A DNA stretch of 28,156 bases from a virus (IMGVR_UViG_2802429240_000006:1-28156), one strand, 5' to 3'. Shown: positions 7,620 to 28,156, counted from the stretch's first letter. Program-made: numbers and translations. The notes: a model not told the origin generated them from the sequence alone.

Positions 7620-7632
7620 GTGGGAAAAATTT

Positions 7633-11248: not shown

Positions 11249-11259
11249 GGGACTGAACC

Positions 11260-11703: not shown

Positions 11704-12317
11704 AAATCTCCCGAAATCTGAATCTGATTATTCCTGTCCGGACAGAAAAGGGTAATGGCTGGATCCATGCCACGCCGATCAGCAAAGAGGTGTTTAAAGA
11801 GCATTTCTTCATCCTGAGTAAAACCTTTTCTGCCATTTTTTCTGAAGGTCTTGGCGTCGTTGCGGGTCCGCGTATCGCCTGCCTTATGCTGGAACGGATC
11901 TCCTCAGATATGAACATCTGGGATGGCGAAAAGGGCGTTCGTAATACGCTCGTGAATGAAATCATTCGCCTTGCGAATCTGGTTTACCCAGTCGAAGGGA
12001 AAGGTTATGACACGCTCCCGCTTGATATGGCGCTGGAGCGCGGCATCGTTGAATTTGATGATGTGGCAGGTGAACTCGTTTTTTTTACATGCGTCTCGTC
12101 GATAAACACACCGGAGCAGACGGAGCAGATGATGCTGGCAGTCAGTGGAATGTGGAACAGTCGCACTTCATCCTTGAGTCTTACGGAATGGATTGCTTCA
12201 TTGCCGACATTGAAGCCTGTCGCCAGTTCTGGCGCGACGGCGAGCACGTTATCAGCGACATCCTCGACTACTCAGCCGGAGACGGATTCAGCGACATCTG
12301 GGCAAATTCCGGTCTGA
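11700..12317 (+). CDS. Tail assembly chaperone (zero-frame product)
   Basis: ATG at 11700 overlaps upstream stop; lies between tube and tape measure genes; contains a T8 slippery run with an overlapping -1 frame ORF. Confidence 0.55.
   Translation: MKISRNLNLIIPVRTEKGNGWIHATPISKEVFKEHFFILSKTFSAIFSEGLGVVAGPRIACLMLERISSDMNIWDGEKGVRNTLVNEIIRLANLVYPVEGKGYDTLPLDMALERGIVEFDDVAGELVFFTCVSSINTPEQTEQMMLAVSGMWNSRTSSLSLTEWIASLPTLKPVASSGATASTLSATSSTTQPETDSATSGQIPV
12079..12086 (+). other. Candidate -1 programmed ribosomal frameshift slippery site (T TTT TTT)
   Basis: Eight consecutive T at 12079-12086; zero-frame codons GTT TTT TTT; the -1 frame is open from 12074 to 12391. Confidence 0.5.
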
Positions 12318-12391
12318 ATGTAAAAACAGCAGCTCAGTTTCGTGAGCTGCGTAAATGCACGACGCCGGGAGGTGTATTGAATGTCAGGTAA
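12089..12391 (+). CDS. -1 frame C-terminal extension of the tail chaperone (frameshift product)
   Basis: ORF in -1 frame relative to the chaperone, begins just after the T8 run and ends overlapping the tape measure start at 12381. Confidence 0.5.
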   Translation: MRLVDKHTGADGADDAGSQWNVEQSHFILESYGMDCFIADIEACRQFWRDGEHVISDILDYSAGDGFSDIWANSGLNVKTAAQFRELRKCTTPGGVLNVR

Positions 12392-14369
12392 TCAGATGCC
12401 AGTTCTGACACTGGACGTTAATGAAGAACATCTTAAGCGACTTGAGGCGATATTTGAAAAGTATCGCAACGGGCTGATGATTGGCCCTGCCGGTACGCCG
12501 CTTAAAATACCTTCAAATACAGGTCCGGCAGGTGGCGCCCGGCAGACAACCACAGGCGGAGAAGCCAATCAGGCTCCCAGGAAACCATCTTCACCCGAGC
12601 CAGTTTCGGCTGCTTCCACTGATGGACGTTTAAGGGATGAAAAAGGGCGCTTTGTTGGAAGCGGGAAAACACCTGATTCGCTGGTGAACAACTATAAAGG
12701 TCGCGGCGAAACGATGTTTGATAAGTACCTCAACGGGCTGGGTAAAAACGCTCAGGGGACACTGAAAACTTACAAACAGATCAATTCAACGCTTAAAACG
12801 ACTAATTCCCGGTTAAAAAGCCTGTTTAAAACCACGGTTTCGTGGGGGGCGAAAATAGCTGCAATAGGGGTTGCGGGGCCGTTTGGCTACAGCTATATGG
12901 CAAGTAAAGTCGCAGCACAGTATAGCGTGGCTCAGGGGTTAGGGATGGAAACCGCCCAAATGCAGGCCGCACGTGCCACCTATTCGCCATATTTTTCTGG
13001 CACAGAAGAACTGGTTCAGCATCTGGCGAACGCACAGAAAAATCCAAACGATCCAAACTATGCTGGTCTGGTTAGTCTTGGAATTGATCCGCGAGATGGT
13101 GCAGCAAAGAATCTGCCCAAACTTATGAGTGCGCTTGCATCTCTAGTTAAGCAATATAAAGGTTCAGGACTTACTCAGGGGATTCTCAACGGACAAGGAC
13201 TTGGATTTGTTGATGTCGCGACAACTAACCAGGTGGAAGCGAATCTGGACAAGATCCCCCAACTGAATGAGAAATTTGCAGCAAATACCCGGTTACTCGG
13301 CGCTTACCTCACGCCAGCTATGCAGTCAGGTTATCAGGACACGGTGAGTAACCTGATGGTAAATGGAAACAGAATATCAAATTCCTGGTATGCAGCTCTC
13401 GCCAGATATAACCCACTAATCAGAGGTGCATCAGATGGACTGACATCCAATATTGAAGGTTTTCTGAATGGTGGAAATTTTAAAAAAATTCTCACTGAGG
13501 CTGGCGAAGGGCTGGAGAAACTTGGTAAGTGGCTGAATAGCGAACAATTTAAAAATGATCTTGACGATTTTTCTCTGGCGGTGAGTCGGATTGCAAAAGC
13601 AATATGGTCAGCTATCAAATGGATCGGTGGGGAAGATAAATATCTCCCCGGAACCGGAGTTGGTGCTGAACAGGCAGATCCAGTTCTTGCGGCATTTGGG
13701 AATAAATATCTCGGTGGTGCGTTGCCGGGAGCAAACCCGATGACAAATCAGTATACGGGTGAGTTTTATAAACAGGATGATGTATATAAAAATTACCGTA
13801 TGCCTAATGATTTAAAGAGAAATATTCAGAACTTTGTAGAGCAAGCCAATAATACTTATCGACTTCCTAAAAATATGATGTCAGCTATCGCGGAGGTTGA
13901 ATCTTCGTGGAATCCTCTGGCAAGAGGAACTCCAGATGAAAAAGGTAGATTCGCTAAGGGGTTGTGGCAATTCTGGGATAGCACCGCAAAACAGTATGGT
14001 CTGGTGGGTGATGATGTTTATGACCCAAATAAATCCACTCTTGCGGCTGGCCGCTTTTTAAATGATCTGAATCGGCGTTATAAAGGCGATGTGGCAAAAA
14101 TGCTTACGGCATATAACGGAGGTCGTATTGATAGAGATGGAAATCTAAGTTTGAGAATGGAGACTGTAAAATATTTAATTAAATTATTGCCTCAGATACA
14201 GGGAGCCTTGGATCAACACCCTGGTATTATGAATCAGCTAAGAAATGCCAGAGATAACCTTCAGGGTGCTGGCAAAAATGCCCGCGCAATAATTGAGCTT
14301 CAGGTGCGACAATCGCCTGGTTCCGACATACTGGCACAACTCGCCGGAACGCAACAAATACCGGGGTAA
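12381..14369 (+). CDS. Tail tape measure protein with lytic transglycosylase (SLT) domain
   Basis: 662 aa directly after the frameshifted chaperone; SLT signature AIAEVESSWNP ... GLWQF ... AYNGG at about nt 13860-14130. Confidence 0.7.
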   Translation: MSGNQMPVLTLDVNEEHLKRLEAIFEKYRNGLMIGPAGTPLKIPSNTGPAGGARQTTTGGEANQAPRKPSSPEPVSAASTDGRLRDEKGRFVGSGKTPDSLVNNYKGRGETMFDKYLNGLGKNAQGTLKTYKQINSTLKTTNSRLKSLFKTTVSWGAKIAAIGVAGPFGYSYMASKVAAQYSVAQGLGMETAQMQAARATYSPYFSGTEELVQHLANAQKNPNDPNYAGLVSLGIDPRDGAAKNLPKLMSALASLVKQYKGSGLTQGILNGQGLGFVDVATTNQVEANLDKIPQLNEKFAANTRLLGAYLTPAMQSGYQDTVSNLMVNGNRISNSWYAALARYNPLIRGASDGLTSNIEGFLNGGNFKKILTEAGEGLEKLGKWLNSEQFKNDLDDFSLAVSRIAKAIWSAIKWIGGEDKYLPGTGVGAEQADPVLAAFGNKYLGGALPGANPMTNQYTGEFYKQDDVYKNYRMPNDLKRNIQNFVEQANNTYRLPKNMMSAIAEVESSWNPLARGTPDEKGRFAKGLWQFWDSTAKQYGLVGDDVYDPNKSTLAAGRFLNDLNRRYKGDVAKMLTAYNGGRIDRDGNLSLRMETVKYLIKLLPQIQGALDQHPGIMNQLRNARDNLQGAGKNARAIIELQVRQSPGSDILAQLAGTQQIPG

Positions 14370-14372
14370 AAG

Positions 14373-15041
14373 ATGTCACTTAATTACTTTGGGCAGGCTT
14401 TCAAACTGGCGTTTGAAGTATCGCCCATTCTTTTAGTTGATGGCATAGCGTCGAAAATTCCCGGCGGGGTGATGCCGATTGCTGTTTTGACCGAAGGCCT
14501 AAGCATTGCGAATGGTCTGCTGCATGGAGAGATTCATACACGCTCGATGGCGGCATTTACCCCGATGGCGGGGACAACGTTAGTCCAGCAGGATATTTGC
14601 AACCTGAATTTCTATAACCAGGTAACGGCAGCGAATGCGACCGTCAGGAAGCCTAACCGGGTAGTCATGCAGATGATCCGTCCGGCATCTACGGAGGACG
14701 GTGGCTACACCACGAAGGGAATGACGTTCACGGCGCTGAAAATGGCGCTTGATATGCATAACCAGTATGGCGGTTGCTACACCGTTCTGACTCCCTCGTT
14801 TATCTACACGCGCTGCCTGATGCGGTCGTTTGTCGATACCTCCGGCTTCTCTGAGCAGAACAAGCAGGTTCAGCACACCTGGCAGATTGAGTTTGAGCAA
14901 CCATTGTCGTCTGTCGAACAAACGGTAAAGACGCTGGCGAGCGTTCTGGATAAATTTGACAAAGGGATGCCGTCAGACGGGCCGCTATCGTGGTCAGGTA
15001 TTAAGAACCAGGTCGTGCAGGAGTTTGGTATTGGCTTATGA
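14373..15041 (+). CDS. Putative tail/baseplate protein
   Basis: 222 aa immediately downstream of tape measure; no motif recognised. Confidence 0.35.
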   Translation: MSLNYFGQAFKLAFEVSPILLVDGIASKIPGGVMPIAVLTEGLSIANGLLHGEIHTRSMAAFTPMAGTTLVQQDICNLNFYNQVTAANATVRKPNRVVMQMIRPASTEDGGYTTKGMTFTALKMALDMHNQYGGCYTVLTPSFIYTRCLMRSFVDTSGFSEQNKQVQHTWQIEFEQPLSSVEQTVKTLASVLDKFDKGMPSDGPLSWSGIKNQVVQEFGIGL

Positions 15042-15304
15042 CAACGTTAATTCCTTTTAAACCTGACGGGCGAGGCCCGTTTCAGTTCACGGCCAGAATT
15101 GGAGAATATGAAACATTCGCCCGCGTTCCGTTTAATCTGTATGCAAATCGTTACTACCTGGAACTGAAAGACAGTTCTGGCGACGTGATTGTGTACATGC
15201 CGTTGATCGCGTCACCTGACAGTTACGACATCAATCTGGCGCTGCCTTGCTCACCGGGGAAACTTGTTTTTCGCGAAAGTACGAATCAGTTTGAGGTTTC
15301 GTAA
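15038..15304 (+). CDS. Hypothetical small tail protein
   Basis: 88 aa, start overlaps upstream stop. Confidence 0.35.
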   Translation: MTTLIPFKPDGRGPFQFTARIGEYETFARVPFNLYANRYYLELKDSSGDVIVYMPLIASPDSYDINLALPCSPGKLVFRESTNQFEVS

Positions 15305-16311
15305 TGCGTTATTACCGACTGGAAATTATTAATCCTAAAACAGGAAAGCCGCCAGTGGATTGCAATGGAAAACCCATTGGGCCTTTTGATACCAGTGAAA
15401 CACCAGGATGTGGGTTGCATGTTGAATTTGACTTTGAAGTAACTGGTCTGGATGTAGTCTGCTCGGGTACGATGCTGACTATCTATGGATTACCAATTGA
15501 CATGCTGAAGCAAAGCGTGAGTTTGCAGGGGTGTCTGGTCCGTATGAAAGCGGGCTTTGTTGAGGGATTGCCTTTGGCAAATCCACAGCAACAGGGTGAG
15601 GTTATTTATGGCGAAATTTATCTGGCCTATGCCAACTGGATCGGCACGAACCAGACCTTAAACCTGGTAATAAATCCAACCGTACGCAAAACAGATGATG
15701 GTAAACCGTTCTCTATCGAGGGGGAGGGGCTTAAAGGGGAAAAGGTTGGTGATGTAATCTCCCGTGCGTTGCAAAAGGCATTTCCGAATAAGTTGATCGA
15801 TTGTACTGTCAGCGACAGCCTCGTTTTGCCGGAACCGTGGAATGGAACCTACGAAGATATTGGCTCGCTGGCTATGGTCCTCCGTAGTGCTTCAATTGCA
15901 ATGATGCGCGATGAGAAATACAGCGGAATTGCCATCAGTATTCTTTCCGACAGAATACGAATTTACGATAACGCGTCAGCAAAGTGGGGTGAGCCAAAAA
16001 CAATTCATGCCCATGAACTGGTCGGGCAGCCGACATGGATAGCGCCGTTTACCGTCAGTTTCAAATGTCCTATGAGAGGCGATATCAGATGTGGTGATGT
16101 GGTTAAACTGCCGGAGGGGCTATATTCTGGCGCTGCGTCGATTGTGATGGCTAATACAACGGCACCCAGCGTTATCGCAAAAAATTCGACCACGTTTACC
16201 GGGAAATTTCTTGTGAAATCAGTCAGACACATTGGTTCGTATCTGACAGCCGATGGCGATGCCTGGGTGACGGTATTTGAGGCATATGCTGAGAACTGGG
16301 CGAGGGTGTAA
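15304..16311 (+). CDS. Putative baseplate hub protein
   Basis: 335 aa, gene order between tape measure and spike-like gene. Confidence 0.35.
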   Translation: MRYYRLEIINPKTGKPPVDCNGKPIGPFDTSETPGCGLHVEFDFEVTGLDVVCSGTMLTIYGLPIDMLKQSVSLQGCLVRMKAGFVEGLPLANPQQQGEVIYGEIYLAYANWIGTNQTLNLVINPTVRKTDDGKPFSIEGEGLKGEKVGDVISRALQKAFPNKLIDCTVSDSLVLPEPWNGTYEDIGSLAMVLRSASIAMMRDEKYSGIAISILSDRIRIYDNASAKWGEPKTIHAHELVGQPTWIAPFTVSFKCPMRGDIRCGDVVKLPEGLYSGAASIVMANTTAPSVIAKNSTTFTGKFLVKSVRHIGSYLTADGDAWVTVFEAYAENWARV

Positions 16312-17024
16312 TGTCAAACGCTCAAAAATTACCGTTTCTCCGAACGCTGTCGGAGATGATGACCAGTTCTGGTAACCAGCAAGCCGAGCTTAAAGGCCGC
16401 GAATTGCCCTGCCATGTTGTCGATGTCAGTGGGCAGATAGTGACCGTTCAGTTTGATATGTTGCCAGAGGGGATCAACTTTCCGCAGATAACAATCCCTG
16501 TCGCCACATTCCCGTATATCCGTTACCCGATACAGCCGGGGGATCGAGGAGTAACAATTGCCGCTGATGTATCCCTGCGCGGTGTGTCCGGATTGGGAAC
16601 CGGTATGGCGACGCTCTCTTACTCGATGTCGCTCACTCCACTGTTTTTCGTGCCACTGGCAAACAAGGACTGGTCCGACGAAGATCCGCAAAAAATCGTT
16701 TTGTACGGTCCGGATGGCGCGATCCTCAAAACAGAGGACGGCAGTAGCTCGGTAACGGTGGCACCGGAAGAAATCAGGCTAAAGTCGAAAGCTGTTTACC
16801 TCGAGGCCGAAGATATCTTCATGAACGGTCAAATTCACCTCAACGGACCGATCGTCCAGGACAAAGCCCAGATGAAGGATACAACCGCTTCGCTGATTGG
16901 CCCTCTCAAAGTCGAGAAGGATGCAGTTATCAACGGCGTGAGCGCCAGCGGTCACAGCCACGATGTGACTGGCGTTCAAAGCGGCAACAGCACGATCACG
17001 TCGAAGAAACCAAATCCGGGTTAA
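16311..17024 (+). CDS. Putative baseplate spike protein (gpV-like)
   Basis: 237 aa; C-terminal GHSHD motif reminiscent of the HxH tip motif of P2 gpV-type spikes; gene order. Confidence 0.5.
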   Translation: MSNAQKLPFLRTLSEMMTSSGNQQAELKGRELPCHVVDVSGQIVTVQFDMLPEGINFPQITIPVATFPYIRYPIQPGDRGVTIAADVSLRGVSGLGTGMATLSYSMSLTPLFFVPLANKDWSDEDPQKIVLYGPDGAILKTEDGSSSVTVAPEEIRLKSKAVYLEAEDIFMNGQIHLNGPIVQDKAQMKDTTASLIGPLKVEKDAVINGVSASGHSHDVTGVQSGNSTITSKKPNPG

Positions 17025-17273: not shown

Positions 17274-17621
17274 ATGAGAACATGGGGCCGCGTCACCGAC
17301 GCGAACGGCAACAAAAAATGGGTTGCTGTAGAATCTGATGCCAACGGTGATTTCTCCTACGGCTGGCTGACGACGCTCATTCAGACGTTAAAGCTGGGGT
17401 TGGGGGAGTCGCCGTTTTACGCGAATTACGGTATTCCAGCGCAGCAGTGCATCGTGCAGCAAATTTACCCGGACTACTATGTGAACATGGTTCAGCAACA
17501 GTTTGCCGGGTATTTTGCATCGCTGGCAATTTCAAAGGTAGATGGGGCAGAGAACCCCACCTATAACATCGATGTTGTGTTTTTTAATGGGACCAGTTAC
17601 CGGACGCAGGTTCCGGTTTGA
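17274..17621 (+). CDS. Putative baseplate wedge protein (gp25 / gpW-like)
   Basis: ATG at 17274 (M12 of track ORF 17241..17621) with GGTGAGGG RBS; 115 aa; GESPFYANYG resembles the GxxPFxxxxG motif of T4 gp25. Confidence 0.4.
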   Translation: MRTWGRVTDANGNKKWVAVESDANGDFSYGWLTTLIQTLKLGLGESPFYANYGIPAQQCIVQQIYPDYYVNMVQQQFAGYFASLAISKVDGAENPTYNIDVVFFNGTSYRTQVPV

Positions 17622-18157
17622 GGCAAGTTTTCGGGCATCAGTTGGGCCAGTGGCGTGTTAAGAAGTTCATCGCGTGGCATGACAATCCATCCACTTTTGC
17701 GTAGTAAGTGAATTGCCCATTCTGTGGTTATAACTGAGCCTGATTTATGGTGCTCAATGTGGGTAACCGAGCCGTTTCTGACGCGCATGATGATGTCAAC
17801 ATTCAGAGGGGATTGTGTGCTGGTGGTATCCTCGCGCAGTTTTTTCTCGCACTCGATGAAGTATCGGCGGATCTGGTGGCCTTTTTCGTTGCGCTCAACC
17901 ATCGCCAGCTCTTTGGCGGTGTCCAGGGTTAGGTGGTAGTCTTTAGCTGGTCTGCCTCTACCGATTTTTTCCCGATTTTGGGAAATAATCAAAAAGTCCT
18001 GATTTTCTACGAATTCATACTCGCTGATTCGCTCGGTGATCCATGTAGCAAAGCGTTTACCTACTTCGAGAAAGGCGTGCAGATCGCGAGCATTACAGAG
18101 AAGGATTGTTTCGTTTGAGACAGTTCCGTTGAAAACGGGGATCAGTTGGGTTGTCAT
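17597..18157 (-). CDS. Phage antirepressor (AntA N-terminal domain plus KilA-C-like C-terminal domain)
   Basis: Start at ATG 18155-18157 (M85 of the 270 aa track ORF) with AGAGG RBS; motifs NARDLHAFLEVGKRFATWI and GRGRPAKDYHLTLDTAKELAMV...RRYFIECEK typical of phage antirepressors. Confidence 0.75.
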   Translation of the reverse strand: MTTQLIPVFNGTVSNETILLCNARDLHAFLEVGKRFATWITERISEYEFVENQDFLIISQNREKIGRGRPAKDYHLTLDTAKELAMVERNEKGHQIRRYFIECEKKLREDTTSTQSPLNVDIIMRVRNGSVTHIEHHKSGSVITTEWAIHLLRKSGWIVMPRDELLNTPLAQLMPENLPQTGTCVR

Positions 18158-18430
18158 GATGACCTCTGTTTGTTTTCTTCGAATTACCACTATCTGAGTG
18201 GTGCCAGGAGGTTCGAAACGGCACAAACAAAGCCGCGGACTTATTCCCCTTTCGGGTGTTGTATTCGTCGCCCTCCCGACATTGATCGGGGATGTGACCG
18301 CACATGGTGCCATCACTAAATAGTAGGCATAAAAAATCCAACACTGACGGGGTTGGTTGTGACCGTGTTTGTTGAGGTTTCGACGCCTCATGCGCCCAAT
18401 CATACTCAATTGGGCGCGGTTGTAAAGAGC
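18158..18430 (-). promoter_or_regulatory. Long structured leader / control region upstream of antirepressor, containing a 9 bp perfect inverted repeat
   Basis: GCGCCCAAT-catactca-ATTGGGCGC at 18392-18417; further GC-rich hairpins; no convincing ORF. Confidence 0.4.
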
Positions 18431-18664
18431 TTAGTTAGCAATGAAAATTGAATTAAAGTAGTTACCATCTTTTGAGGCAATCACTTTACCTGAACTACGT
18501 GAAATAATGTTAACTCGCATATTTATTGTTGGGTTTGCGGTATACATCATAAATTTAAGTTTATAATTCCTTTCAAGCATGATTCGTTTGGATGGTGCTT
18601 GCTTATCAAAAAAATTAGTTGGTCCCATATTACCCGTGACTGAAAGGTTACAAGAGCTCGGCAT
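18431..18664 (-). CDS. Hypothetical small protein (77 aa) in AT-rich cassette; coding status doubtful
   Basis: ORF from track; no good RBS before the first ATG, internal ATG at codon 13 has a weak GGG; AT-rich like the lipoprotein gene. Confidence 0.3.
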   Translation of the reverse strand: MPSSCNLSVTGNMGPTNFFDKQAPSKRIMLERNYKLKFMMYTANPTINMRVNIISRSSGKVIASKDGNYFNSIFIAN

Positions 18665-18723
18665 ATATAATTCAAAGCTTCTGCTATCATAGCAAAATAG
18701 TTCGGCTTCATATGGAAAGCGTT

Positions 18724-19155
18724 TTATCGAAGCAGTATTGAATTCTTTTTCATTTTTTTTGATTCTTCCTCTGCTTCCCTTTTAATATCTTCTATTCTCT
18801 TTTGTTGTTCGCGTTCTTCTTTTTCTTTTTGAGCTTTTCTTTCATCTTCAGTCACAAAAACAACATGTACATCATTTGACCATCTGCCAGTTGATTGTAG
18901 ATAACCTTGAGAATATGAGCCATCAGATAATGTAGCGATTGCTGGTCGCTCAGTAAAATCATCTGAACCATAAATCATGCCACCTGTGTAATCAATTCTT
19001 GTGGCTTTAATTGCTCTGTGGCTATTTATAGTATTTAGTATTCTTTCATTTGTGTACCCACTAATTAACAAACCGTCGGCAAGGTTAGTTTGTTGTTCGT
19101 ATGGAACGCAGCCAACTACCGAAAATGAAATCAATAAAGAAATTAACTTTTTCAC
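18724..19155 (-). CDS. Lipoprotein with ER/K-rich charged C-terminal tail (accessory / moron gene)
   Basis: GTG start with AGGG RBS; signal peptide MKKLISLLISFSVVGC with lipobox VVGC, Cys followed by V (not D); C-terminus ERKAQKEKEEREQQKRIEDIKREAEEESKKMKK; strongly AT-rich relative to flanking genes. Confidence 0.65.
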   Translation of the reverse strand: MKKLISLLISFSVVGCVPYEQQTNLADGLLISGYTNERILNTINSHRAIKATRIDYTGGMIYGSDDFTERPAIATLSDGSYSQGYLQSTGRWSNDVHVVFVTEDERKAQKEKEEREQQKRIEDIKREAEEESKKMKKNSILLR

Positions 19156-19176
19156 AACTTACCCTTGAGATTAACT

Positions 19177-20403
19177 ATGTCAGAAATACCAATTACTATG
19201 ACCAGTGCGGGTGCGCAGCCTACGCCACCCAATGATTTGCTTGCGAATCTTATCACCAGAGTTGCTGAAAAAGTACCTGGATATACAGCCAACCTTCCGG
19301 CGGGACTTATTACAGACCTTGCCAGCACGGCAGTCGGGGCGCTGGCATTAATAGACCAGGCGCGGGTTGATCTTATTAACTCCGTAAGCCCATACGGCGC
19401 GAATATTCCGTTACTGATGCAACTCGGAAACATATATGGAGCACAGAAGGGATTAAGTACAAATACGGCTGTATACGTGGTGTTTGAGGCGTTGCCGGGG
19501 TTTGGTATCCCTAAAGGATTTGTGGTTGGAGACGGTAACTACCAGTATGCGGTTTCCCGCGATACGGTGGTGCCGGAAAGTGGGCAGACTGAACCAGTCT
19601 ACTGTGTGGCCACTACGTCAGGCTCATGGGCTGTACCGGAAGGGACCGTGACGCAGGTCATTACATCAGTACCCAAAGACCAGCCTGTAAAATGCACCAA
19701 CCTAACCGCAGGGATGCCAGGTCAGGAGGCGCAAACGTGGGCATCATACCGCGCCGAAGTCATGGAGTCCGGCATGTTTGGTGTGCAGGGAACACCGGAT
19801 TGCTTTAAAGCGATGCTCAAATCAGTAAGCGGTGTGCGAGAAAACCTGATTTCTTTCCGGCAGTCGTCGTTGGGGAAATGGGTTGCGGTTGTTGGTGGCG
19901 GTGATCCGTATGATGTGGCTTATGCGATTTACAAATCTGTACCGGATATTTCGAAACTGACCAACGATGTTAGCAATCCATCCGGTGCGGCAGTGGAAAA
20001 ACGCACGGTTTCAATAACCGTTTCGCCGGACGTTTATCAGGTGCCGTTCGTTATCCCGTCATCACAAAACGTCATGGTGCTAATCACCTGGAACACGGTG
20101 TCTGATGATTATGTTGATCCGGCGGGTATTGCTATGGCTGTGCAGCAAAACGTTGCTGATTACATCAATTCTATTGAAGTCGGTCACCCGATAAATCTGC
20201 TGCGAATCCAGGATATTTTTACCAGCTCCGTAAAATTGCTGGTTGATGCGACGTTGATCTCAACAATCAGTGTGAGCATTGGTATTAACGGCCATATTGT
20301 TCTTCCGGCAAAAGACACAAGCCTGGTTTATGGCGATACCTATTCCTATTTTTCAACGGTGGCATCACAGGTTCAGGTCAACAAGTATGCAATATCTGAC
20401 TGA
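19177..20403 (+). CDS. Putative baseplate protein J-like
   Basis: ATG 19177 (track start TTG 19165); ~408 aa; position before I-like and tail fiber genes. Confidence 0.5.
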   Translation: MSEIPITMTSAGAQPTPPNDLLANLITRVAEKVPGYTANLPAGLITDLASTAVGALALIDQARVDLINSVSPYGANIPLLMQLGNIYGAQKGLSTNTAVYVVFEALPGFGIPKGFVVGDGNYQYAVSRDTVVPESGQTEPVYCVATTSGSWAVPEGTVTQVITSVPKDQPVKCTNLTAGMPGQEAQTWASYRAEVMESGMFGVQGTPDCFKAMLKSVSGVRENLISFRQSSLGKWVAVVGGGDPYDVAYAIYKSVPDISKLTNDVSNPSGAAVEKRTVSITVSPDVYQVPFVIPSSQNVMVLITWNTVSDDYVDPAGIAMAVQQNVADYINSIEVGHPINLLRIQDIFTSSVKLLVDATLISTISVSIGINGHIVLPAKDTSLVYGDTYSYFSTVASQVQVNKYAISD

Positions 20404-21013
20404 GAAAATTCTCCCTGCTTATCCATTTGTGCAGTACAGAGATGATCCGAATGTTGTTGCGTTCTTTGATGCATACAATGAAATTGCTCAGGAATACCTC
20501 GATTCACTCAACAATCTGGCATTGCCATGCTGGACATCGGAATCAATAACCGGGCAATTGCTGGACTGGATTGCACTCGGGATTTATGGCGTTGAAAGGC
20601 CTTTACTACAGGTTTCCGAGGAGGCTATTGCACGCGGCGCATACGATACCATTGAATACAATACGATCCCGTATGCCGCAATGCGGAATTACGTTCCGGG
20701 GCAGGCATCGTATGTACCTGATGATTATTTCAAACGAATATTAACGTGGAATTTTTATAAGGCTGACGGTTCGCATTTCTGCATTGACTGGTTAAAGCGA
20801 CGTGTGGCGCGGTTCATTCATGGAAAAAACGGAATAGACCCGCCGTTGCAGCACACTTTTGATGTGAGTGTGACAGTATCGGACAGCGTTTTTTCTATTC
20901 AGATACCAGAGTATGGCGATGGTATAGGCTATTTTCTGAAAGATGCCATTGACCAGAAATATGTAAAACTCCCTTTTATTTATTCCTATGCAACAACGGT
21001 GATTCAAAAATGA
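20387..21013 (+). CDS. Putative tail protein I-like (fiber attachment)
   Basis: ATG at 20387 (M37 of track ORF 20279..21013) overlapping the upstream gene end; 208 aa; gene order J-I-fiber. Confidence 0.4.
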   Translation: MQYLTEKILPAYPFVQYRDDPNVVAFFDAYNEIAQEYLDSLNNLALPCWTSESITGQLLDWIALGIYGVERPLLQVSEEAIARGAYDTIEYNTIPYAAMRNYVPGQASYVPDDYFKRILTWNFYKADGSHFCIDWLKRRVARFIHGKNGIDPPLQHTFDVSVTVSDSVFSIQIPEYGDGIGYFLKDAIDQKYVKLPFIYSYATTVIQK

Positions 21014-22521
21014 TTCTTGGATTTGGCAATAACGTTGTTTCAGCACTGGCTGGTGATATCACCACGATTCAGACTGATATTCCGGTAATGCCCGGTACAG
21101 GGGCTAAATTTGCAAAATTGCTTTCTGCCGATTTTGAAAATAAATCGAACGGGCAACGTGTCTATGCAAAAATTACGCTTACCGATAATAAAGAGTCTGC
21201 ATTTGAGATTTGTCACCTGGTATCGGTAAGCGGTGATGTGTTGAAAGTCATTCGTGGGCAGGAAGGAACAACCGCGAAAGGTTGGTCCCTTAATGACGTT
21301 GTGGCTAACTTTGCCACGCGTGGTTCGGAAAACCATTTCGTACAGATAGCGCAGCTTCAGAGTGGTCATTATATTGCGGGAGTTGCTGGCGGCACTGCAA
21401 ACGCGCTGACTCTGGAGCTTCCCGCGACGTTTTTTGTTAATGGAGGTACAGACTGGACGCTACGAACCCCGATTATCGTTTTCCCCGTTCAGAACAATAC
21501 CAATGCCGCGACACTTCAATTAACACTGGGCGGAAAGGTTCTTGGTACGTTCCCGCTTTATAAGGGGAACAAGTCCGAGCTGGTAGCGAACGATATCATT
21601 AAAGGCATTCCCTTAATTTGTCTTCTTGATAGCGAGAAAAGCTATTTCAGCGTGATAAACCCTGGCAATATCTATTCAGATTTTGATCTGCGATATGTAA
21701 AAAAATCTGGTGATTTGATGACCGGGGAACTGAAAATCCGTGGTGTTAATGCGCTGAGGATTTTCAACGAAGCCTTTGGTCTGATTTTTCGTCGTTCGGA
21801 AGAGTGCCTGCACCTTATCCCTACCAGTGAAGGTCAGGGCGAGAATGGCGATATTGGTCCACTTCGACCGTTCACTATTAATCTGCGGACGGGTGAGATA
21901 TCCATGTCGCATAAAGTGTCTGTTGGCGGCGGTTCTCAGGTCAATGGTGCGCTGGGTATCGGCGTTCAGAACGCGCTGGGTGGAAACTCAATTGCTTTCG
22001 GGGATAACGATACAGGTATAAAACAAAACGGCGACGGCATTCTGGATGTTTATGCGAATGGACAGCATGTATTTCGTTTCCAGAATGGTGGGGCGATAGC
22101 GTTAAAAAATATTCAAGCCGGAAATGCTAAAAAATTCACGTTATCCAGCGCCAACAACTCCACGAAAAACGCAGCGTTTAATTTATGGGGCAATTCGTCC
22201 CGCCCTGTAGTTGCAGAGCTTGGCGATGATTCCGGCTGGCATTTTTACAGTCAAAGGAATACGGATAACAGCATAACGTTCGCTGTAAACGGGCAGATGG
22301 TTCCATCAAACTACGGAAACTTTGATGCCCGCTATCAGACCAAAACAGGCGGTGTGCAGGATGTGCGTCTGGGAAGCGCCATTGGTATTGGACGCGGGGG
22401 AAATGCGCCATCAGGTCATTTACTGAGTGGTGTTGATGGCGGTGAAAGTGTGGACTGGGCCAATGCACGCCCGGTGCAGGTTCTGATTAATGGCGTCTGG
22501 CGAAATGTAGCGAGTTTGTAA
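21010..22521 (+). CDS. Tail fiber protein (first fiber)
   Basis: 503 aa after the J/I-like genes, followed by a tail fiber assembly gene. Confidence 0.45.
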   Translation: MILGFGNNVVSALAGDITTIQTDIPVMPGTGAKFAKLLSADFENKSNGQRVYAKITLTDNKESAFEICHLVSVSGDVLKVIRGQEGTTAKGWSLNDVVANFATRGSENHFVQIAQLQSGHYIAGVAGGTANALTLELPATFFVNGGTDWTLRTPIIVFPVQNNTNAATLQLTLGGKVLGTFPLYKGNKSELVANDIIKGIPLICLLDSEKSYFSVINPGNIYSDFDLRYVKKSGDLMTGELKIRGVNALRIFNEAFGLIFRRSEECLHLIPTSEGQGENGDIGPLRPFTINLRTGEISMSHKVSVGGGSQVNGALGIGVQNALGGNSIAFGDNDTGIKQNGDGILDVYANGQHVFRFQNGGAIALKNIQAGNAKKFTLSSANNSTKNAAFNLWGNSSRPVVAELGDDSGWHFYSQRNTDNSITFAVNGQMVPSNYGNFDARYQTKTGGVQDVRLGSAIGIGRGGNAPSGHLLSGVDGGESVDWANARPVQVLINGVWRNVASL

Positions 22522-22523
22522 TT

Positions 22524-23072
22524 ATGATGCACTTAAAAAATATTACGGCACAAAATCCCAAAACAATTGAGCAATACCAGCTGGCGCGGCAGCATAAATT
22601 TTTATTGTGGCTGTTCTCCGATGATGGTCAGGAATGGCACGAAGCCCAGGAAAAATTTCAGCCAGACACTCTGAAAGTTATTTATGTTGAAACTGGCGAA
22701 GTGGTCTGGGTTGGAAAAGACATCACCTCAATCTGCCCGGAAAATAAAAGCGTGATTGAGCTACCGGATATTACCGCCAATCGTCGCATTGAGGCGTCGG
22801 GTTACTGGTTTTACCGCAATGATGAATTTGTTTTCGATTACAAATTAAAAGCAGAAGACGAGCGTGATGCACTGTTAAAACAGGTCAGCATCATGACCAG
22901 CGAATGGGAAAAAGACCTGCTACTGGGATTAATCAGCGACGAAGACAGGGAAAAACTGAAAGCATGCCGTATTTATGCGAAAGCACTACAGCAGATGACA
23001 TTCAGCCAGATTACAGATAAAGCATCGTATGCCGCGATTGTATGGCCCGTCTCTCCTGAAGCCTCTTCCTGA
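22524..23072 (+). CDS. Tail fiber assembly protein (Tfa-type chaperone)
   Basis: 182 aa; C-terminal region LKACRIYAKALQQ...AAIVWPVSP resembles the conserved C-terminal WP..P motif of Tfa chaperones. Confidence 0.5.
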   Translation: MMHLKNITAQNPKTIEQYQLARQHKFLLWLFSDDGQEWHEAQEKFQPDTLKVIYVETGEVVWVGKDITSICPENKSVIELPDITANRRIEASGYWFYRNDEFVFDYKLKAEDERDALLKQVSIMTSEWEKDLLLGLISDEDREKLKACRIYAKALQQMTFSQITDKASYAAIVWPVSPEASS

Positions 23073-23095
23073 TTTAATTTATCGCGAGAAAAACT

Positions 23096-26000
23096 ATGTC
23101 TGTAGTGATATCAGGTGCGCTGATAGATGGCGCAGGCATCCCTATGTCCGGATGCCACATAATTCTGAAATCCCGGGTAAACACCTCAGAAGTGGTGATG
23201 CGCACAGTTGCTGACGTGGTGACAGGAAACTGTGGCGAGTACTGTTTTAAGGCGCAGACCGGAAAATATTGCGTATATCTGAAACAGGACTGGCGCGATG
23301 AGTACTGTGTTGGCGACATTGCTGTATACGATGACTCAAAGCCCGGCACGCTGAACGACTTTCTGACTGCCCTTGATGAAGGCGACCTCAAACCCGACGT
23401 GGTGAAACGCTTTGAGGAAATGGTGGCGCAGGCGCAGCAGAGCGCGGAAGCGGCAGCGGAAAGCGAACAACAGGCCGGGAAACATGTTGCTGATGCGCAA
23501 CAAATCAAGAGCGACTGCGAGACGCTGGCGGATAACGTACAGCAGAATGCAGAAGCCGTTGCCGAAGATAAAAAGCAGGTGGCACAGCTGGCATCATCTG
23601 CCACACAGGATGCGGCACGCGCAGAGCAGGCCGTCAAGGATGCCGACCTGATAGTCCAGAAAGCGGTCGATAAACTTGGTGAAGCTGCAACGCTGACCGG
23701 TGAGGCAAAAGCCAGCGCCGAAGCGGCAGCAAAAAGCGAGCAGAGCGCGAAACAGCACAGGGACGAGGCGCAACGGATAGTTGATGACCTGAAGGGAACC
23801 AACGCCAGCACGACGCAAAAAGGCCTGGTGCAACTCTGTAGTGATACAGACAACGACAGCGAAGAACTGGCAGCCACACCAAAAGCCGTCAAAGCCGTCA
23901 TGGACGAGACGAAAACAAAAGCGCCGCTGGACAGCCCGGCGTTCACCGGCACGCCCACCACACCAACCCCGCCGGACGATGCGACCGGGCTGGAGATGGC
24001 GAACGCGGCATTTGTCCGCAAACTGCTCGCCACGCTGGTTGACTCATCACCGGAAGCCCTCGACACGCTGAACGAGCTGGCAGCGGCACTGGGCAATGAC
24101 CCGAACTTTGCGACAACAATCATGAACGCGCTGGCGGGTAAACAACCACTCAGCGACGTGTTAACCGCTATCAGTAATCTGGAAGAGCGGGCAGATAACC
24201 TTCTGTGCTTTAATCAGGACGGGAATGCTTCACTGTCTCCGCTGTCGGAGAAAGCCCGGTCACTGCTGGCACAGGCCACAGTGGAAGCCATGCGCAATGA
24301 GCTTGAGCTGAAAAGCGCAGCGGTAAGGGACATTCAGACAGACATTTACGACAGCACGGAAGGCCGTGTTGCGCTTCCCGGTGCGTATGGTTACGGAATG
24401 ACGGACGCCGGAGCACGTTCAGTTATTGCCAGCGATATGGCGACTGTAGCCAGAACTGCACACAACCTGCACCCGGGACGGTATTACACCTTTTCCACAC
24501 AAACGGAAGAGACGACCGGAATAACAGAAATTATCTGGCTGGATAACAACTGGGGCGACAAAACCAGCCAGACAGCAACAAAGCTGGTTCTGTTTTTTGG
24601 AAAAGACGGACGGATTCTTATGACCGTTCGTGGCGATAATATCTCCGCCCCGGTCACCTGGACGAATCTGACGCCACAACTTGGCAATGCAGCACAGAAG
24701 GATGCGCAGGAGAATATTTACGACCGCACCGAAGGTCGTCTGGCGATTCCCGGCATGTTCGGTTTCGGGAAAATATTTTCCAGTAGCGACAGAACTGAAT
24801 TTAAATCAGGGACTGATTTTCTCAGGTGGGTAAAAACAGCAAAACCCGGTCGTTATACCGTATTTGCGGACACAAATGTGGTGGTACCTGGCATACAGAC
24901 AAACGGTGTTATTGAAATTATCTGGCCACAACCTAAAACCAGCCCGAATGATGAGTATGCCTATAAGATAATTATTTATTACGGTGTTAATGGTCATATT
25001 TATTATAACCGTTGCGCGGTGGCATCAGATGGTGGTTATCTGGTTGGCTGGGAAAACCTGAAGGTTGATGAGGCTTCACTCAGGGCACTGATTGAAGCCC
25101 GCGCACCACTGAAAAGTCCGGCACTGACCGGAACTCCGACAGCACCAACACCGCCGGATGATGCAGCAGGTAATGAAATAGCCAATGCGGAGTTTGTCCG
25201 CAAACTGCTCGCTGCGCTGGTTGACTCATCACCTGAAGCCCTGGACACGCTGAACGAGCTGGCAGCGGCGCTGGGTAATGACCCGAACTTTGCGACAACG
25301 GTCACTAATGCACTGGCAGGTAAACAGCCGCTTAATGACGTGTTAACGGCTGTCAGCCAGATAATACCGGAAGAAAACACGCTGCCTTATTTCAGTGAAG
25401 AGGGCCGGATTTTACTGGCGCAGCTGTCAGAAAAAGCCCGCGCATTACTGGCACTGGACACACCTGAAGCCATGCGCACGGAGCTTGAGCTGAAAGCGGC
25501 TGCGACGATGGAACCCCAGAGCGATATCCGCGACCGTACACCGGGCAGGCTGGCGCTGTCCGGTATGCATGGATTTGGTCAGGCATTTGCCAGCACTGAA
25601 GCCCTGGCGTTTGAGGGACTGTCTGATTTCGTTGAATGGCTGAAGAAAGTCACGCCGGGGCGGTATGCGGTCAGTATTACAGATTCATCACAACTGCTTA
25701 CCGGTACCACGCAATTTAACGGCATTATTGACGTGATGTGGTCCCCGTACGCCAACAGTGAATCTGACACAGTCCGCAAATTTAAAACCCTGATGTGTTA
25801 CAACCAGTATTATCAGGGTGAACACTGCATTCACTATATGCAGTACCGGTACAACGACAGCGATAACAGCTGGAACATGTCATCGCGGGTAGTTGTCTAC
25901 GACGGAGATTCACTGGCGTACCTGTTGTCCAGGATGGCGGGCTCAGGCTCATATTTCAAATACCCGGCAGTGGGTGTTCCGGTGCTGGCTGTTTATCGCG

Positions 26001-26239
26001 GAACAACTTCCGGGGATAAAGAAATCAAAATTGGCCTGGGTGATGTGGTGCAGGGGTCACAACTGGGCGGAGTTAATCTTTCGTGCACAATATCTTCTGC
26101 CGGGCCTGGCTCTTACGGTTCAACACCAAGTGCAGGAGCAACAGGGTACACTTTTCCGGGGCGTTATATGGCGTTATCCGGGGTCAGGGACTCTTACGGA
26201 ACAAGCGGTCGTATCTGCCTGTTTGTGCGCATCGAGTAA
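23096..26239 (+). CDS. Side tail fiber protein, lambdoid Stf-like (second fiber)
   Basis: 1047 aa; N-terminus MSVVISGALIDGAGIPMSGCHIILKSR...VYDDSKPGTLNDFL closely resembles the E. coli prophage Stf N-terminal domain; conserved fiber motif LAATPKAVKAV; two internal duplicated modules. Confidence 0.8.
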   Translation: MSVVISGALIDGAGIPMSGCHIILKSRVNTSEVVMRTVADVVTGNCGEYCFKAQTGKYCVYLKQDWRDEYCVGDIAVYDDSKPGTLNDFLTALDEGDLKPDVVKRFEEMVAQAQQSAEAAAESEQQAGKHVADAQQIKSDCETLADNVQQNAEAVAEDKKQVAQLASSATQDAARAEQAVKDADLIVQKAVDKLGEAATLTGEAKASAEAAAKSEQSAKQHRDEAQRIVDDLKGTNASTTQKGLVQLCSDTDNDSEELAATPKAVKAVMDETKTKAPLDSPAFTGTPTTPTPPDDATGLEMANAAFVRKLLATLVDSSPEALDTLNELAAALGNDPNFATTIMNALAGKQPLSDVLTAISNLEERADNLLCFNQDGNASLSPLSEKARSLLAQATVEAMRNELELKSAAVRDIQTDIYDSTEGRVALPGAYGYGMTDAGARSVIASDMATVARTAHNLHPGRYYTFSTQTEETTGITEIIWLDNNWGDKTSQTATKLVLFFGKDGRILMTVRGDNISAPVTWTNLTPQLGNAAQKDAQENIYDRTEGRLAIPGMFGFGKIFSSSDRTEFKSGTDFLRWVKTAKPGRYTVFADTNVVVPGIQTNGVIEIIWPQPKTSPNDEYAYKIIIYYGVNGHIYYNRCAVASDGGYLVGWENLKVDEASLRALIEARAPLKSPALTGTPTAPTPPDDAAGNEIANAEFVRKLLAALVDSSPEALDTLNELAAALGNDPNFATTVTNALAGKQPLNDVLTAVSQIIPEENTLPYFSEEGRILLAQLSEKARALLALDTPEAMRTELELKAAATMEPQSDIRDRTPGRLALSGMHGFGQAFASTEALAFEGLSDFVEWLKKVTPGRYAVSITDSSQLLTGTTQFNGIIDVMWSPYANSESDTVRKFKTLMCYNQYYQGEHCIHYMQYRYNDSDNSWNMSSRVVVYDGDSLAYLLSRMAGSGSYFKYPAVGVPVLAVYRGTTSGDKEIKIGLGDVVQGSQLGGVNLSCTISSAGPGSYGSTPSAGATGYTFPGRYMALSGVRDSYGTSGRICLFVRIE
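23925..24175 (+). repeat. Internal direct repeat copy A within the Stf gene
   Basis: Near-identical to copy B, e.g. 24036-24118 vs 25216-25298 differ at only a few positions by eye. Confidence 0.6.
25105..25355 (+). repeat. Internal direct repeat copy B within the Stf gene
   Basis: See copy A; encodes KSPALTGTPTAPTPPDD...VDSSPEALDTLNELAAALGNDPNFATT. Confidence 0.6.
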
Positions 26240-26252
26240 CGGGGAATAAAAC

Positions 26253-26825
26253 ATGAAAATCAGAGCGGTAAAAGGCATCAGAAACGCCCATTATCTCGAA
26301 AATGGTGCGGTTGACTGCGAGGTGTTATTTGAAGGTGAAACGGAATTCGTCCTGTATACCGCCATGCAGGATGATACCGCCCCGACAGGCCAGCGCATCT
26401 GGGAGGAGTTACAGAGCGGCAAATGGGGTGAAATCGCCCCGTTCACCGTCACGCCTGAACTTATCGCAGCGGCAAAAGATGCCAAAAAGATGGAAATCGA
26501 GGCATGGCGCGCAGAACAGGAGTCGCAGCCGTTCACGTTCGAATGGAACGGTCGCACCTGGAATGCTGGCCCCGACTCAATGGCTCGTCTTTATCCGGCA
26601 GTAATGGCATCAAAGTCTGACACAGCGCGAAAAACCATGGTATGGGGCGATGCGGAAAACCAGCAGGTGAAACTGTCGATGCAGAAACTGGATGAGCTGC
26701 TTACTGCAATGGCGCAGGCACAGGTCGATCGCAATGACGAGATATATCGTCGCCAGCGTGAGATGAAGGATGAACTGAATAGTCTGGAGGATTTGAATTC
26801 GGTTAGGAATTTTATCGTGGAATAA
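26253..26825 (+). CDS. Putative tail fiber assembly / chaperone protein for the Stf-like fiber
   Basis: 190 aa immediately downstream of Stf with GGGGAA RBS; no Tfa C-terminal motif recognised, so the call rests on position. Confidence 0.4.
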   Translation: MKIRAVKGIRNAHYLENGAVDCEVLFEGETEFVLYTAMQDDTAPTGQRIWEELQSGKWGEIAPFTVTPELIAAAKDAKKMEIEAWRAEQESQPFTFEWNGRTWNAGPDSMARLYPAVMASKSDTARKTMVWGDAENQQVKLSMQKLDELLTAMAQAQVDRNDEIYRRQREMKDELNSLEDLNSVRNFIVE

Positions 26826-26865: not shown

Positions 26866-27133
26866 TGGCTGACGTACGTTCGATAATGCGAAACTGAATG
26901 AAAGTCAGCCGGAAATAATCTTACATAATTGTTGAGAAATTATTCAACTCATAGATTGCTTATTTCTGCCTGGATTGGTCTGAAATAGTCCCGAAATTTT
27001 CTCTAAAAAACTCGAAAAAAATGGTAACTAATTGAATGCATTAATATGCAATGGTATGTGTTTGGGATTAAAAGATGAGCGTAATTTTGCTTAACACATT
27101 AATTTAAAAAGGGTTTCTTGTTTGTTGACGAAA

Positions 27134-27159
27134 ACAGGAATCGTGTTCGGTCTCTTTTT
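27134..27159 (+). other. Sequence resembling the 3' end and terminator of sRNA gene sdsR (ryeB); candidate prophage attachment core (attR side)
   Basis: ACAGGAATCGTGTTCGGTCTCTTTTT matches, from memory, the 3' terminal ~26 nt of SdsR with one mismatch; resemblance degrades upstream of ~27125. Confidence 0.35.
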
Positions 27160-27174
27160 ATCTATAAAGCCAGT

Positions 27175-27205
27175 TTGATAATGGCATTACTGCTTTTCCC
27201 TCACT
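27175..27205 (+). promoter_or_regulatory. Candidate sigma32-type promoter for pphA
   Basis: TTGATAA (27175-27181), 16 nt, CCCTCACT (27198-27205), loosely like the heat-shock consensus; pphA is reported to be heat-shock regulated. Confidence 0.25.
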
Positions 27206-27307
27206 GACTTCACAATCAACCATAACACACACTCTACTGCTTCAGTCCAGGCTTTTTTAACATTTTTGTTAAAATAATGTGATCTTATGCGCGGGAGTAA
27301 GGAATTG

Positions 27308-27964
27308 ATGAAACAGGCAGGCCACATCTATCAGAGAATTGATGGTAGTCAGTGGCGACATATTTGGCTGGTGGGTGATATTCATGGCTGCCTGGCGCAA
27401 CTGCGAGAGAAATTATGGTTCTGCCGGTTTGACCCGTGGCAAGACTTGTTAATCTCGGTTGGTGACGTTATCGATCGTGGCCCGGAGAGTTTGCGTTGCC
27501 TGCAATTACTGGATCAACGCTGGGTCAGGGCGGTAAGAGGCAATCATGAGCAGATGGCGATGGATGCGCTGGCATCGCAGCAGATGTCTTTGTGGTTTAT
27601 GAATGGTGGCGACTGGTTTGCCGCACTGACAGAGCACCAACGTGAGCAAGCGAGAAGGGCGCTGGAAAAGTGCGGGTCTTTGCCGTGGATAATTGAATTA
27701 AGCTGTAGTAGCGGACTGCATGTCATCGCCCATGCGGATTACCCCAATGATATTTATGAGTGGCATAAGGAAGTCGATCTGCATCAGGTGTTGTGGAGTC
27801 GCTCGCGATTGCGTGAAGGCCGAAAAGGGCAGAGAATTACCGGCGCTGATCATTTCTGGTTTGGTCATACGCCATTACGCCATCGCGTAGATATCGGTAA
27901 CTTGCATTATATTGATACCGGCGCGGTCTTTGGTGGAACACTCACGTTGGAACGACTCCAGTAA
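27308..27964 (+). CDS. pphA: Serine/threonine protein phosphatase 1
   Basis: 218 aa from ATG 27308 with AAGGA RBS; metallophosphatase motifs GDIHG, GDVIDRG, GNHE; sequence recognised as E. coli PphA (PrpA). Confidence 0.9.
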   Translation: MKQAGHIYQRIDGSQWRHIWLVGDIHGCLAQLREKLWFCRFDPWQDLLISVGDVIDRGPESLRCLQLLDQRWVRAVRGNHEQMAMDALASQQMSLWFMNGGDWFAALTEHQREQARRALEKCGSLPWIIELSCSSGLHVIAHADYPNDIYEWHKEVDLHQVLWSRSRLREGRKGQRITGADHFWFGHTPLRHRVDIGNLHYIDTGAVFGGTLTLERLQ

Positions 27965-28156
27965 TTAAAAGTCACTGTAATCTTGCGCAGGCCGCCAGAA
28001 CCCATCAATGAAATCTTCAACGGGAAAACAGCCACCGTGGCGGATCCGTTGATCGTCCATTGAGTAGAGGCACTGCTGTTCCGTATTGTAGACATCAACC
28101 ACAATATCTTCACAACCAGCGTCCAGATAGCAAACAAAAAGTACCAGCGCGAACAT
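27965..28156 (-). CDS. yebW: Small conserved protein YebW
   Basis: 63 aa ORF whose start codon is the last three bases of the window; sequence MFALVLFVCYLDAGCEDIVVDVYNTEQQ recognised as YebW, the known neighbour of pphA. Confidence 0.75.
   Translation of the reverse strand: MFALVLFVCYLDAGCEDIVVDVYNTEQQCLYSMDDQRIRHGGCFPVEDFIDGFWRPAQDYSDF

Follow-up and report, generated by a model that had tools for sequence, protein, structure and literature searches.

Two consecutive tail fibre modules, each with its own putative chaperone, close the late operon of a Rac-SA53-like prophage

Described relatives of the four-gene cassette

Two tail fibre genes, each followed by a gene for its own helper protein, are annotated in the Stx2e phage phiP27 (L54-L57, NC_003356) and the LT-II phage Rac-SA53 (tail1-tail4, KU052037), both of which have the order fibre, Tfa, PF08400-type fibre, DUF4376 protein. 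Here, we describe the same cassette in the viral sequence IMGVR_UViG_2802429240_000006:1-28156, a stretch of 28,156 nucleotides (nt) that was analysed whole and is called the window below; its two fibres are referred to, in gene order, as fibre 1 and fibre 2. Rac-SA53 has the whole structural module in common with this prophage at approximately 95% DNA identity, and differs in the fibre 1 tip, the N-terminal half of Tfa (N-half) and the fibre 2 tip. In phiP27, by contrast, the head, neck, sheath and baseplate are Mu-like and unrelated, and only the cassette is similar, with identities of 72% for fibre 1 from amino acid (aa) 230 onwards, 94.5% for Tfa, 74% for aa 1-223 of fibre 2 and 77% for the DUF4376 protein; its fibre 2 is also much shorter (490 aa vs 1047 aa). 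Since the arrangement is annotated in both phages and carried by approximately 3% of complete E. coli genomes, it is neither unusual nor new. What is added here is the domain anatomy of fibre 2 with its internal duplication, evidence for a match of each helper protein to its own tip, the recombination joints and the occurrence of the fibre 2 anchor subtype, StfN2, on four tail types.

Individual parts of the cassette resemble further described systems. The C-terminus of fibre 1 and its Tfa are homologous to the S/U and S'/U' pairs of Mu (TfaMu, PDB 5yvq), where the chaperone gene likewise lies directly downstream; unlike Mu, the prophage has no invertible G segment or invertase, and the N-terminus of fibre 1 is unrelated and would fit another baseplate. 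Fibre 2 has the layout of lambda Stf (Ur-lambda, PDB 9e7m), namely a PF08400 beta-sandwich anchor and a coiled coil, then PF03406 and collar motifs, although its anchor is only about 45% identical to that of lambda, its tip is different, its partner is a DUF4376 protein rather than Tfa, and the prophage tail is sheathed and without a gpV/gpM collar site. In Ur-lambda, twelve Stf anchor domains form a collar around the junction of tail tube and gpM (PMC12617516). The contractile-tailed Vibrio phage XM1 has in gp40 (PDB 7kjk) a homologous N-terminal domain of about 100 aa followed by a coiled coil of about 100 aa; gp40 differs in ending in a tailspike domain and in being encoded far from the baseplate genes. 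On the XM1 neck, six gp40 trimers attach to the head-completion and terminator proteins (PMC10457771), and XM1 is the only solved myovirus with an anchor homologous to that of fibre 2. The second helper protein has its counterparts in Alteromonas V22 gp27, A5 gp9 and the partner of the Campylobacter CJIE1 H-fibre, which are proteins of approximately 190-240 aa with a C-terminal PF14301 domain, encoded directly after a fibre gene (PMC7289586, PMC10579305, PMC7882524), and which share with it a predicted N-terminal beta part and a helical body with beta-hairpins. Proteins of this family are needed for an active fibre in V22 (PMC7289586) and for H-fibre function in CJIE1 (PMC7882524), and models place them on fibre tips as trimeric caps (PMC10579305). 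The V22 and CJIE1 systems differ from the prophage in that the client fibre here is Stf-type.

We consider it likely that the late operon of this Rac-SA53-like temperate myovirus prophage, which lies beside pphA in Escherichia marmotae, ends in two receptor-binding modules, a baseplate fibre and a portable Stf-type fibre, each with its own chaperone. Module 1 would be the phage's own baseplate fibre, with an N-terminal part of approximately 235 aa that fits one particular baseplate and a distal half that forms a Mu S-type tip; the adjacent Tfa would fold, and probably cap, this tip, which its variable N-half would recognise. Module 2 would be a portable add-on in which a beta-sandwich anchor of approximately 95 aa and a coiled coil mount an Stf-type fibre on the virion, and the remainder of fibre 2 would form a long shaft, made of the collar repeat in two copies and of globular domains in three paralogous copies, leading to a receptor-binding tip. 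The DUF4376 protein would fold and trimerise this tip; its variable N-terminal beta domain would be specific to the tip, whereas trimer formation would probably be driven by its conserved helical domain. The tips may be swapped independently by recombination at conserved linkers, namely aa ~230 of fibre 1, the block formed by the Tfa C-half and the Stf anchor, and the collar repeats. Two independently exchanged tips imply that the virion would carry two different adhesins, and the dual or broadened host range proposed in the original prediction, which was made from the sequence before any database search, would be a plausible consequence.

Fibres, helper proteins and their variation among relatives

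An open reading frame (ORF) check recovered all four genes on the + strand with exactly the coordinates and lengths expected beforehand (Table 1). All four proteins match PHROG tail-fibre families, with E-values from 1e-54 down to 1e-291, and their domain matches lie far beyond chance, in agreement with the original prediction of two separate fibre-plus-helper modules. The genes are tightly packed: fibre 1 overlaps the upstream gene (a gap of -4 nt), and the gaps that follow along the cassette are 2, 23 and 13 nt. No internal promoters or terminators above chance were found between the cassette genes (promoter-like sites, 3 vs 10 expected), and this together with the tight packing indicates that the four genes are the end of one late operon. 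A pseudogene or degraded fibre, which had been named as an outcome that would speak against two modules, was rejected, as both ORFs are full length and have identical copies in other assemblies; the corresponding genes of relatives are equally long, so that neither fibre is truncated.

Table 1. Coordinates of the cassette, its domains and associated features in the window
Feature	Position	Strand	Evidence or remark
Tail sheath gene	9911-11248		phrog_205 4.6e-53
Baseplate J/gp47-like wedge protein	19165-20403	+	PF04865 8.7e-8; phrog_6 baseplate wedge 1.4e-38
Baseplate protein, 205 aa, P2 gpI position	20396-21013	+	phrog_8212 2.6e-118
Fibre 1, 503 aa	21010-22521	+
Fibre 1 aa 1-235, putative baseplate anchor specific to tail type	21010-21714	+	phrog_25419 1.2e-120
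Fibre 1 aa 236-503, distal shaft and putative Mu S-type receptor-binding tip	21715-22521	+	homology to PDB 5yvq_A and phiP27 L54
Tfa, putative fibre 1 assembly chaperone, 182 aa	22524-23072	+	PF02413 Caudo_TAP 1.4e-20; Mu U, PDB 5yvq_B 9.5e-34
Fibre 2, 1047 aa	23096-26239	+
Fibre 2 aa 1-133, Stf-type N-terminal anchor, StfN2 subtype	23096-23494	+	PF08400 1.2e-61
Fibre 2 aa ~100-237, Ala/Glu/Gln-rich predicted coiled-coil rod	23393-23806	+	aligns with XM1 gp40 coiled coil to aa 193
Collar repeat copy 1, motif PTPPDDA...SSPEALDTLNELAAALGNDPNFATT	23921-24174	+	254-nt direct repeat
Fibre 2 aa 404-520 (D1) and aa 528-660 (D2), globular domains	24305-25075	+	internal repeat comparison
Collar repeat copy 2	25103-25356	+	254-nt direct repeat
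Fibre 2 aa 798-1047, D3 and C-terminal tip, presumed receptor-binding end	25487-26236	+
DUF4376 protein, 190 aa, presumed to act on fibre 2 as intermolecular chaperone or cap	26253-26825	+	PF14301 4.4e-15 on aa 73-177; phrog_1141 1e-86
Perfect 12-bp hairpin with 13-nt loop	26830-26866	+	starts 5 nt past the DUF4376 stop, at the prophage/host junction; sequence inspection

Relatives were compared in a first set of 84 loci fetched by the shared 205-aa baseplate marker, and co-variation was computed over 24 distinct relatives. Over its first 235 aa, fibre 1 is 97-100% identical where the baseplate marker is at least 97% identical, 82-94% identical where the marker is 92-97% identical, and 47-76% identical in distant relatives, and this part is not found in phiP27. 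Its ratio of nonsynonymous to synonymous substitution (dN/dS) is 0.03, and it weakly matches a fibre of which PDB 8jov contains 18 copies. By sequence comparison, this segment is a baseplate anchor that tracks the baseplate type. The distal part (aa 236-503) ranges in identity among relatives from 33 to 100% and contains matches to Mu S (PDB 5yvq_A, 7e-12, aa 414-502) and to a T4 gp34 repeat (5e-11, aa 382-435). A tip homologous to Mu S is followed directly by a Tfa homologous to Mu U, as in modules of the Mu S/U type, and a match to the Mu S'/U' junction extends to the DNA level; the predicted pairing of fibre 1 with a Tfa-type protein is supported by both Pfam and the Mu structure. The identity of the fibre 1 tip correlates with that of the Tfa N-half (Spearman rho 0.92), and the Tfa C-terminal part has a dN/dS of 0.15. 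This co-variation fits the published modular picture of Tfa (PMC9608196, citing the Mu structure), where fibre binding falls to a variable domain at the N-terminus and trimerisation to a conserved helical domain at the C-terminus. Comparison with related prophages, proposed originally as a check, accordingly finds the fibre 1 tip and its chaperone variable and the fibre 1 N-terminus tracking the baseplate. A tip that is inverted as in Mu or P1 was also considered and rejected: the sole inverted repeat is one 16-nt pair at chance level, an invertase is absent between the fibres and the prophage end, and matches to P1 Sc and cix reflect the shared collar motif only.

Fibre 2 opens with the StfN2 anchor, which matches aa 1-93 of lambda Stf (PDB 9e7m, 1.4e-16). 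Beyond the anchor, aa 1-193 of fibre 2 match aa 1-184 of the XM1 collar spike gp40 (PDB 7kjk_A3, 6e-10), and fibre 2 has both the Ig-like N-terminal domain and the long coiled coil homologous to gp40 that are expected of a neck or collar fibre of the gp40 type. The G+C content is 0.55-0.58 over the coiled coil vs approximately 0.46 in fibre 1. An Ala/Ser-rich antisense ORF of 349 aa lies opposite this stretch (23074-24123, - strand); nothing supports it as a gene, and the GC-rich Ala/Glu/Gln codon usage of the coiled coil most likely accounts for it. The coiled-coil rod is followed by a PF03406 match (7.6e-16) and by the first of two collar repeats; this first copy matches the constant part of P1 S. 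At the DNA level the two collar copies are 81% identical and 1182 nt apart, and in the protein the collar segment aa 287-400 recurs at aa 681-797 within a longer repeat (aa 287-481 vs 681-882, 56% identical, 2e-71). The globular domains D1, D2 and D3 are each headed by the motif DxxDxTxGRxAxxGxxGxG (at about aa 404, 528 and 798) and are recognisably related (D1 vs D2, 32% identical, 6e-17; D2 vs D3, 42% identical, 1.5e-22), and a Pfam search found no family for D1 and D2. Recombination between the two collars would drop 394 codons and leave a fibre of 653 aa; variants of 652-654 aa are present in loci L009, L018 and L030, and relative to the 652-aa forms the prophage fibre has an extra 394-aa cassette of collar, D1 and D2. 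Among relatives, fibre 2 lengths range from 465 to 1061 aa. Many fibre 2 relatives in NCBI (P0137, P0182, P0185 and others), often fragments at contig ends, are named 'shikimate transporter', which is a propagated annotation error.

The partner of fibre 2 was originally suspected to belong to a chaperone class other than Tfa. It does, in that it matches PF14301 and no Tfa; the class itself has, however, been described since 2020. A reading of this protein as a divergent Tfa was unsupported, since BLAST finds none, there is no PF02413 match and the hhalign probability is 30%, and so fibre 2, although Stf-type, does not have the Caudo_TAP chaperone usual downstream of such fibres. Its layout, with a C-terminal PF14301 domain and a gene that starts just past fibre 2, is that of the V22 gp27 type. 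The AlphaFold2 model (predicted local distance difference test, 91) consists of a small N-terminal beta domain and a second domain predicted to be built as helix, hairpin, helix, hairpin and long helix. Fold searches gave prefoldin-like matches, which are probably generic helical hairpins, and they did not recover the resemblance to the intramolecular chaperone domains of the K1F and T5 fibres (PMC10579305). Among relatives, the identity of the N-terminal 70 aa closely follows that of the fibre 2 tip (rho 0.89), as opposed to that of the C-terminal domain (rho 0.21), for which dN/dS is 0.15. The DUF4376 protein thus appears to divide its labour as Tfa does, with linkage of adjacent DNA contributing to such correlations. 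Domain shuffling is suggested by PHROG 11571, whose matches cover the Tfa N-half (aa 27-114) as well as most of the DUF4376 protein (aa 55-184).

In the close clade, almost every complete locus carries fibre 1 and Tfa followed by an Stf-type fibre with its DUF4376 protein, occasionally with another partner in place of the latter, and distant relatives in Serratia and other genera carry only fibre 1 and its chaperone, which marks module 2 as the addition. The tips of the two fibres assort independently among relatives (rho 0.28), and sliding identity shows mosaic blocks throughout; the mosaicism that had been predicted is supported. Side by side with these patterns, recurrent deletions were observed that remove the fibre and leave the DUF4376 gene fused to the start of the Stf anchor, of which approximately the first 40 nt or the first quarter persist (L045, L008, L015, L022, L023, L034, L036 and L040, and H149 and H150 in E. 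coli). We also noted that PP818812.1 (H2, H70, H79), named 'Actinobacillus phage vB_Apl-pPE4', is 91-98% identical to the prophage structural and fibre genes; its host label looks doubtful.

Distribution and possible docking sites of the StfN2 anchor

The original description of fibre 2 as lambdoid Stf type holds at the level of the family, as judged by PF08400 and PDB 9e7m, but not for the subtype. Four records of the phage collection (Rac-SA53, phiP27 twice and the phage labelled Actinobacillus) have an anchor 95-99% identical to it, whereas identity is below 60% in 302 others, and in sequence it is a separate Stf subtype. We assembled a second comparison set of 77 metagenome-derived viral loci with the StfN2 anchor and sorted them by upstream genes. 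A Rac-SA53-type baseplate precedes the anchor in 36 loci, a Mu/phiP27-type baseplate in 18, a P2 gpH-type fibre with gpD hub in seven and lambdoid siphovirus genes (gpJ, Lom and a first lambda-type Stf) in four; the context of the remaining 12 is unclassified. The anchor is common to three contractile chassis and some lambdoid siphoviruses at 78-100% identity, and of the 65 classified loci, 61 have a contractile chassis. A Tfa gene ends less than 200 nt upstream of the anchor in 71 of the 77 loci, across all four tail types, and given these mixed contexts the StfN2 anchor marks a second, terminal fibre module regardless of tail type; its gene nearly always comes second and last among the fibre genes. 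The lambdoid siphovirus contigs L115, L150, L157 and L165 have tandem Stf-type fibres after gpJ and Lom, the first with a lambda-type anchor and an intramolecular Peptidase_S74 chaperone or Tfa, the second with the StfN2 anchor. Over 43 distinct alleles, mostly from contractile-tail contexts, the anchor has a dN/dS of 0.09 and is under strong purifying selection. The subtype is present in 143-187 of 5426 complete E. coli genomes.

These distributions bear on where fibre 2 would attach. By analogy with XM1 gp40, a position at the neck is plausible, and it would account for the indifference of module 2 to baseplate type. We tentatively extend this to a general proposal, to which we give a rather modest chance of being correct: the StfN2 anchor of approximately 95 aa would be a chassis-independent mount for an accessory fibre, binding a site universal to long-tailed phages, most plausibly the head-completion and terminator rings of the neck, in the manner of gp40. 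On this view fibre 2 belongs to the neck and not to the baseplate, and the same mount would supply a second fibre both to lambdoid siphoviruses with a first Stf of their own and to contractile tails of at least three unrelated kinds. Tail kinship with XM1 was considered as support for docking at the neck, and no sequence evidence for it was obtained in the PDB and Pfam searches. The neck proteins encoded at 7618-9911 have no PDB or Pfam match and no sequence similarity to XM1 gp4 or gp5.

The constant position past Tfa could also be read to mean that the two modules form one composite fibre, branched or serial, in which the fibre 2 anchor docks on fibre 1 or on tip-bound Tfa, as in the branched fibres of some T5-like and N4-like phages. 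The Tfa of Mu reportedly stays bound to the fibre tip (a finding ascribed to North et al. 2019), which would provide such a docking site, and a docking partner borne on the cassette would explain its portability, given that phiP27 has only the cassette as virion components in common with the prophage. Nevertheless, we regard a composite fibre as improbable. The anchor is 86-98% identical in loci with an unrelated distal half of fibre 1 and with a Tfa N-half that either cannot be detected or is only 26-64% identical (L001, L042, L056 and L057), and docking on fibre 1 or Tfa is unlikely when the anchor is conserved where both have been replaced. phiP27 and L056/L057 have no fibre 1 segment in common, and L142 and L161, both with ample upstream DNA, lack a Tfa homologue ending within 200 nt of the anchor. 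The independent assortment of the tips also argues against one composite fibre, and the location past Tfa is equally explained if both modules simply end the late operon. Finally, the homologous anchor binds the virion body in both solved cases (PMC12617516, PMC10457771).

A second alternative is that module 2 is a lambdoid fragment that hitch-hikes in the prophage, cannot be mounted on a contractile tail, and is either functionless or active only after recombination into a siphovirus. The sole docking mode solved at high resolution for a close family member does require an exposed tail tube (PMC12617516), the anchor-DUF4376 fusion deletions are common, and module 2 lies at the extreme end of the prophage, where cargo genes accumulate. 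We nonetheless give this alternative little credence. The 1047-aa ORF is intact both here and in independent genomes, the selection on the anchor is measured on alleles of which most come from contractile-tail contexts, the StfN2 subtype resides mainly on contractile chassis, and the solved myovirus XM1 has a homologous anchor at its neck.

Returning to the explanation that we favour, a baseplate fibre followed by a portable Stf-type fibre, several observations weigh against it. With a sheath gene and baseplate genes present, the prophage does not offer the exposed tube/gpM junction on which the Stf collar forms, and the lambda docking site would be buried by sheath and baseplate on a contractile tail. 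A PDB search with the concatenated neck, tail and baseplate proteins of the prophage gave no XM1 match; the 16311-17024 product alone was matched, weakly, to phi92 gp138. Most of fibre 2 is deleted in eight related loci, corresponding to seven distinct prophage contigs, and fibre 2 is therefore dispensable, at least in resident prophages. Part of the co-variation of tips and chaperones could come simply from their adjacent DNA being genetically linked. Lastly, we infer that both fibres are present on the virion, and for fibre 2 this step from gene to particle is itself to be counted on the same side.

Genomic surroundings and implications

The upstream genes follow the order terminase, portal and capsid; sheath; tape measure with a transglycosylase domain; hub; spike; J-like protein; and 205-aa baseplate protein. 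The spike, encoded at 16311-17024, has a weak match to and is related to phi92 gp138. The tail is contractile, as originally predicted, because the sheath gene and baseplate genes are present. Of the J/I-like baseplate genes that had been placed upstream of the cassette, the J-like gene is supported by its Pfam match, whereas the 205-aa protein is I-like by position only, being without a match in the Pfam search; its UniRef homologues are named DUF2612. The neck, tube and hub proteins (7618-16311) are without a Pfam family or a solved-structure match, so that the structural module is poorly characterised. The baseplate cluster is broken up by two reverse-oriented genes in a patch of low G+C content (0.40) at 17597-19155, one for an AntA/AntB antirepressor (17597-18160, - strand, PF08346 2.3e-28) and the other a lipoprotein-like ORF of 143 aa (18724-19155, - strand). 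This patch is a variable cargo slot, because Rac-SA53 and E. coli 52F4 have ant and two other small genes there.

Assembly GCA_013369115.2, from Escherichia sp. 14.0985 / E. marmotae, encodes proteins identical to those of the cassette, for which NCBI has the records WP_105291246 to WP_105291249. The host DNA downstream (26900-28156) contains pphA and yebW and is approximately 84% identical to E. coli across the 5426 complete genomes, and the exact PphA protein is that of E. marmotae; related prophages occupy the same pphA site in some E. coli strains. The hairpin at the junction of prophage and host has no T-run on its 3' side and was not reported by the terminator scan, and this inverted repeat could be a terminator variant or be related to the attachment site.

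The locus is a well-formed case of a known design, in which two adhesins, each with its own chaperone, stand at the end of a temperate phage late operon. The pairing of DUF4376 proteins with Stf-type fibres in enterobacterial prophages suggests that this class, described in marine and Campylobacter phages, also serves the numerous fibres of E. coli and Salmonella that have a partner with no more than a DUF name. The joints mapped here could be used for engineered fibre swaps. If it is true that the StfN2 anchor binds a universal site such as the neck, unrelated phages or phage-derived particles could be given a second receptor specificity with this anchor as a generic handle.

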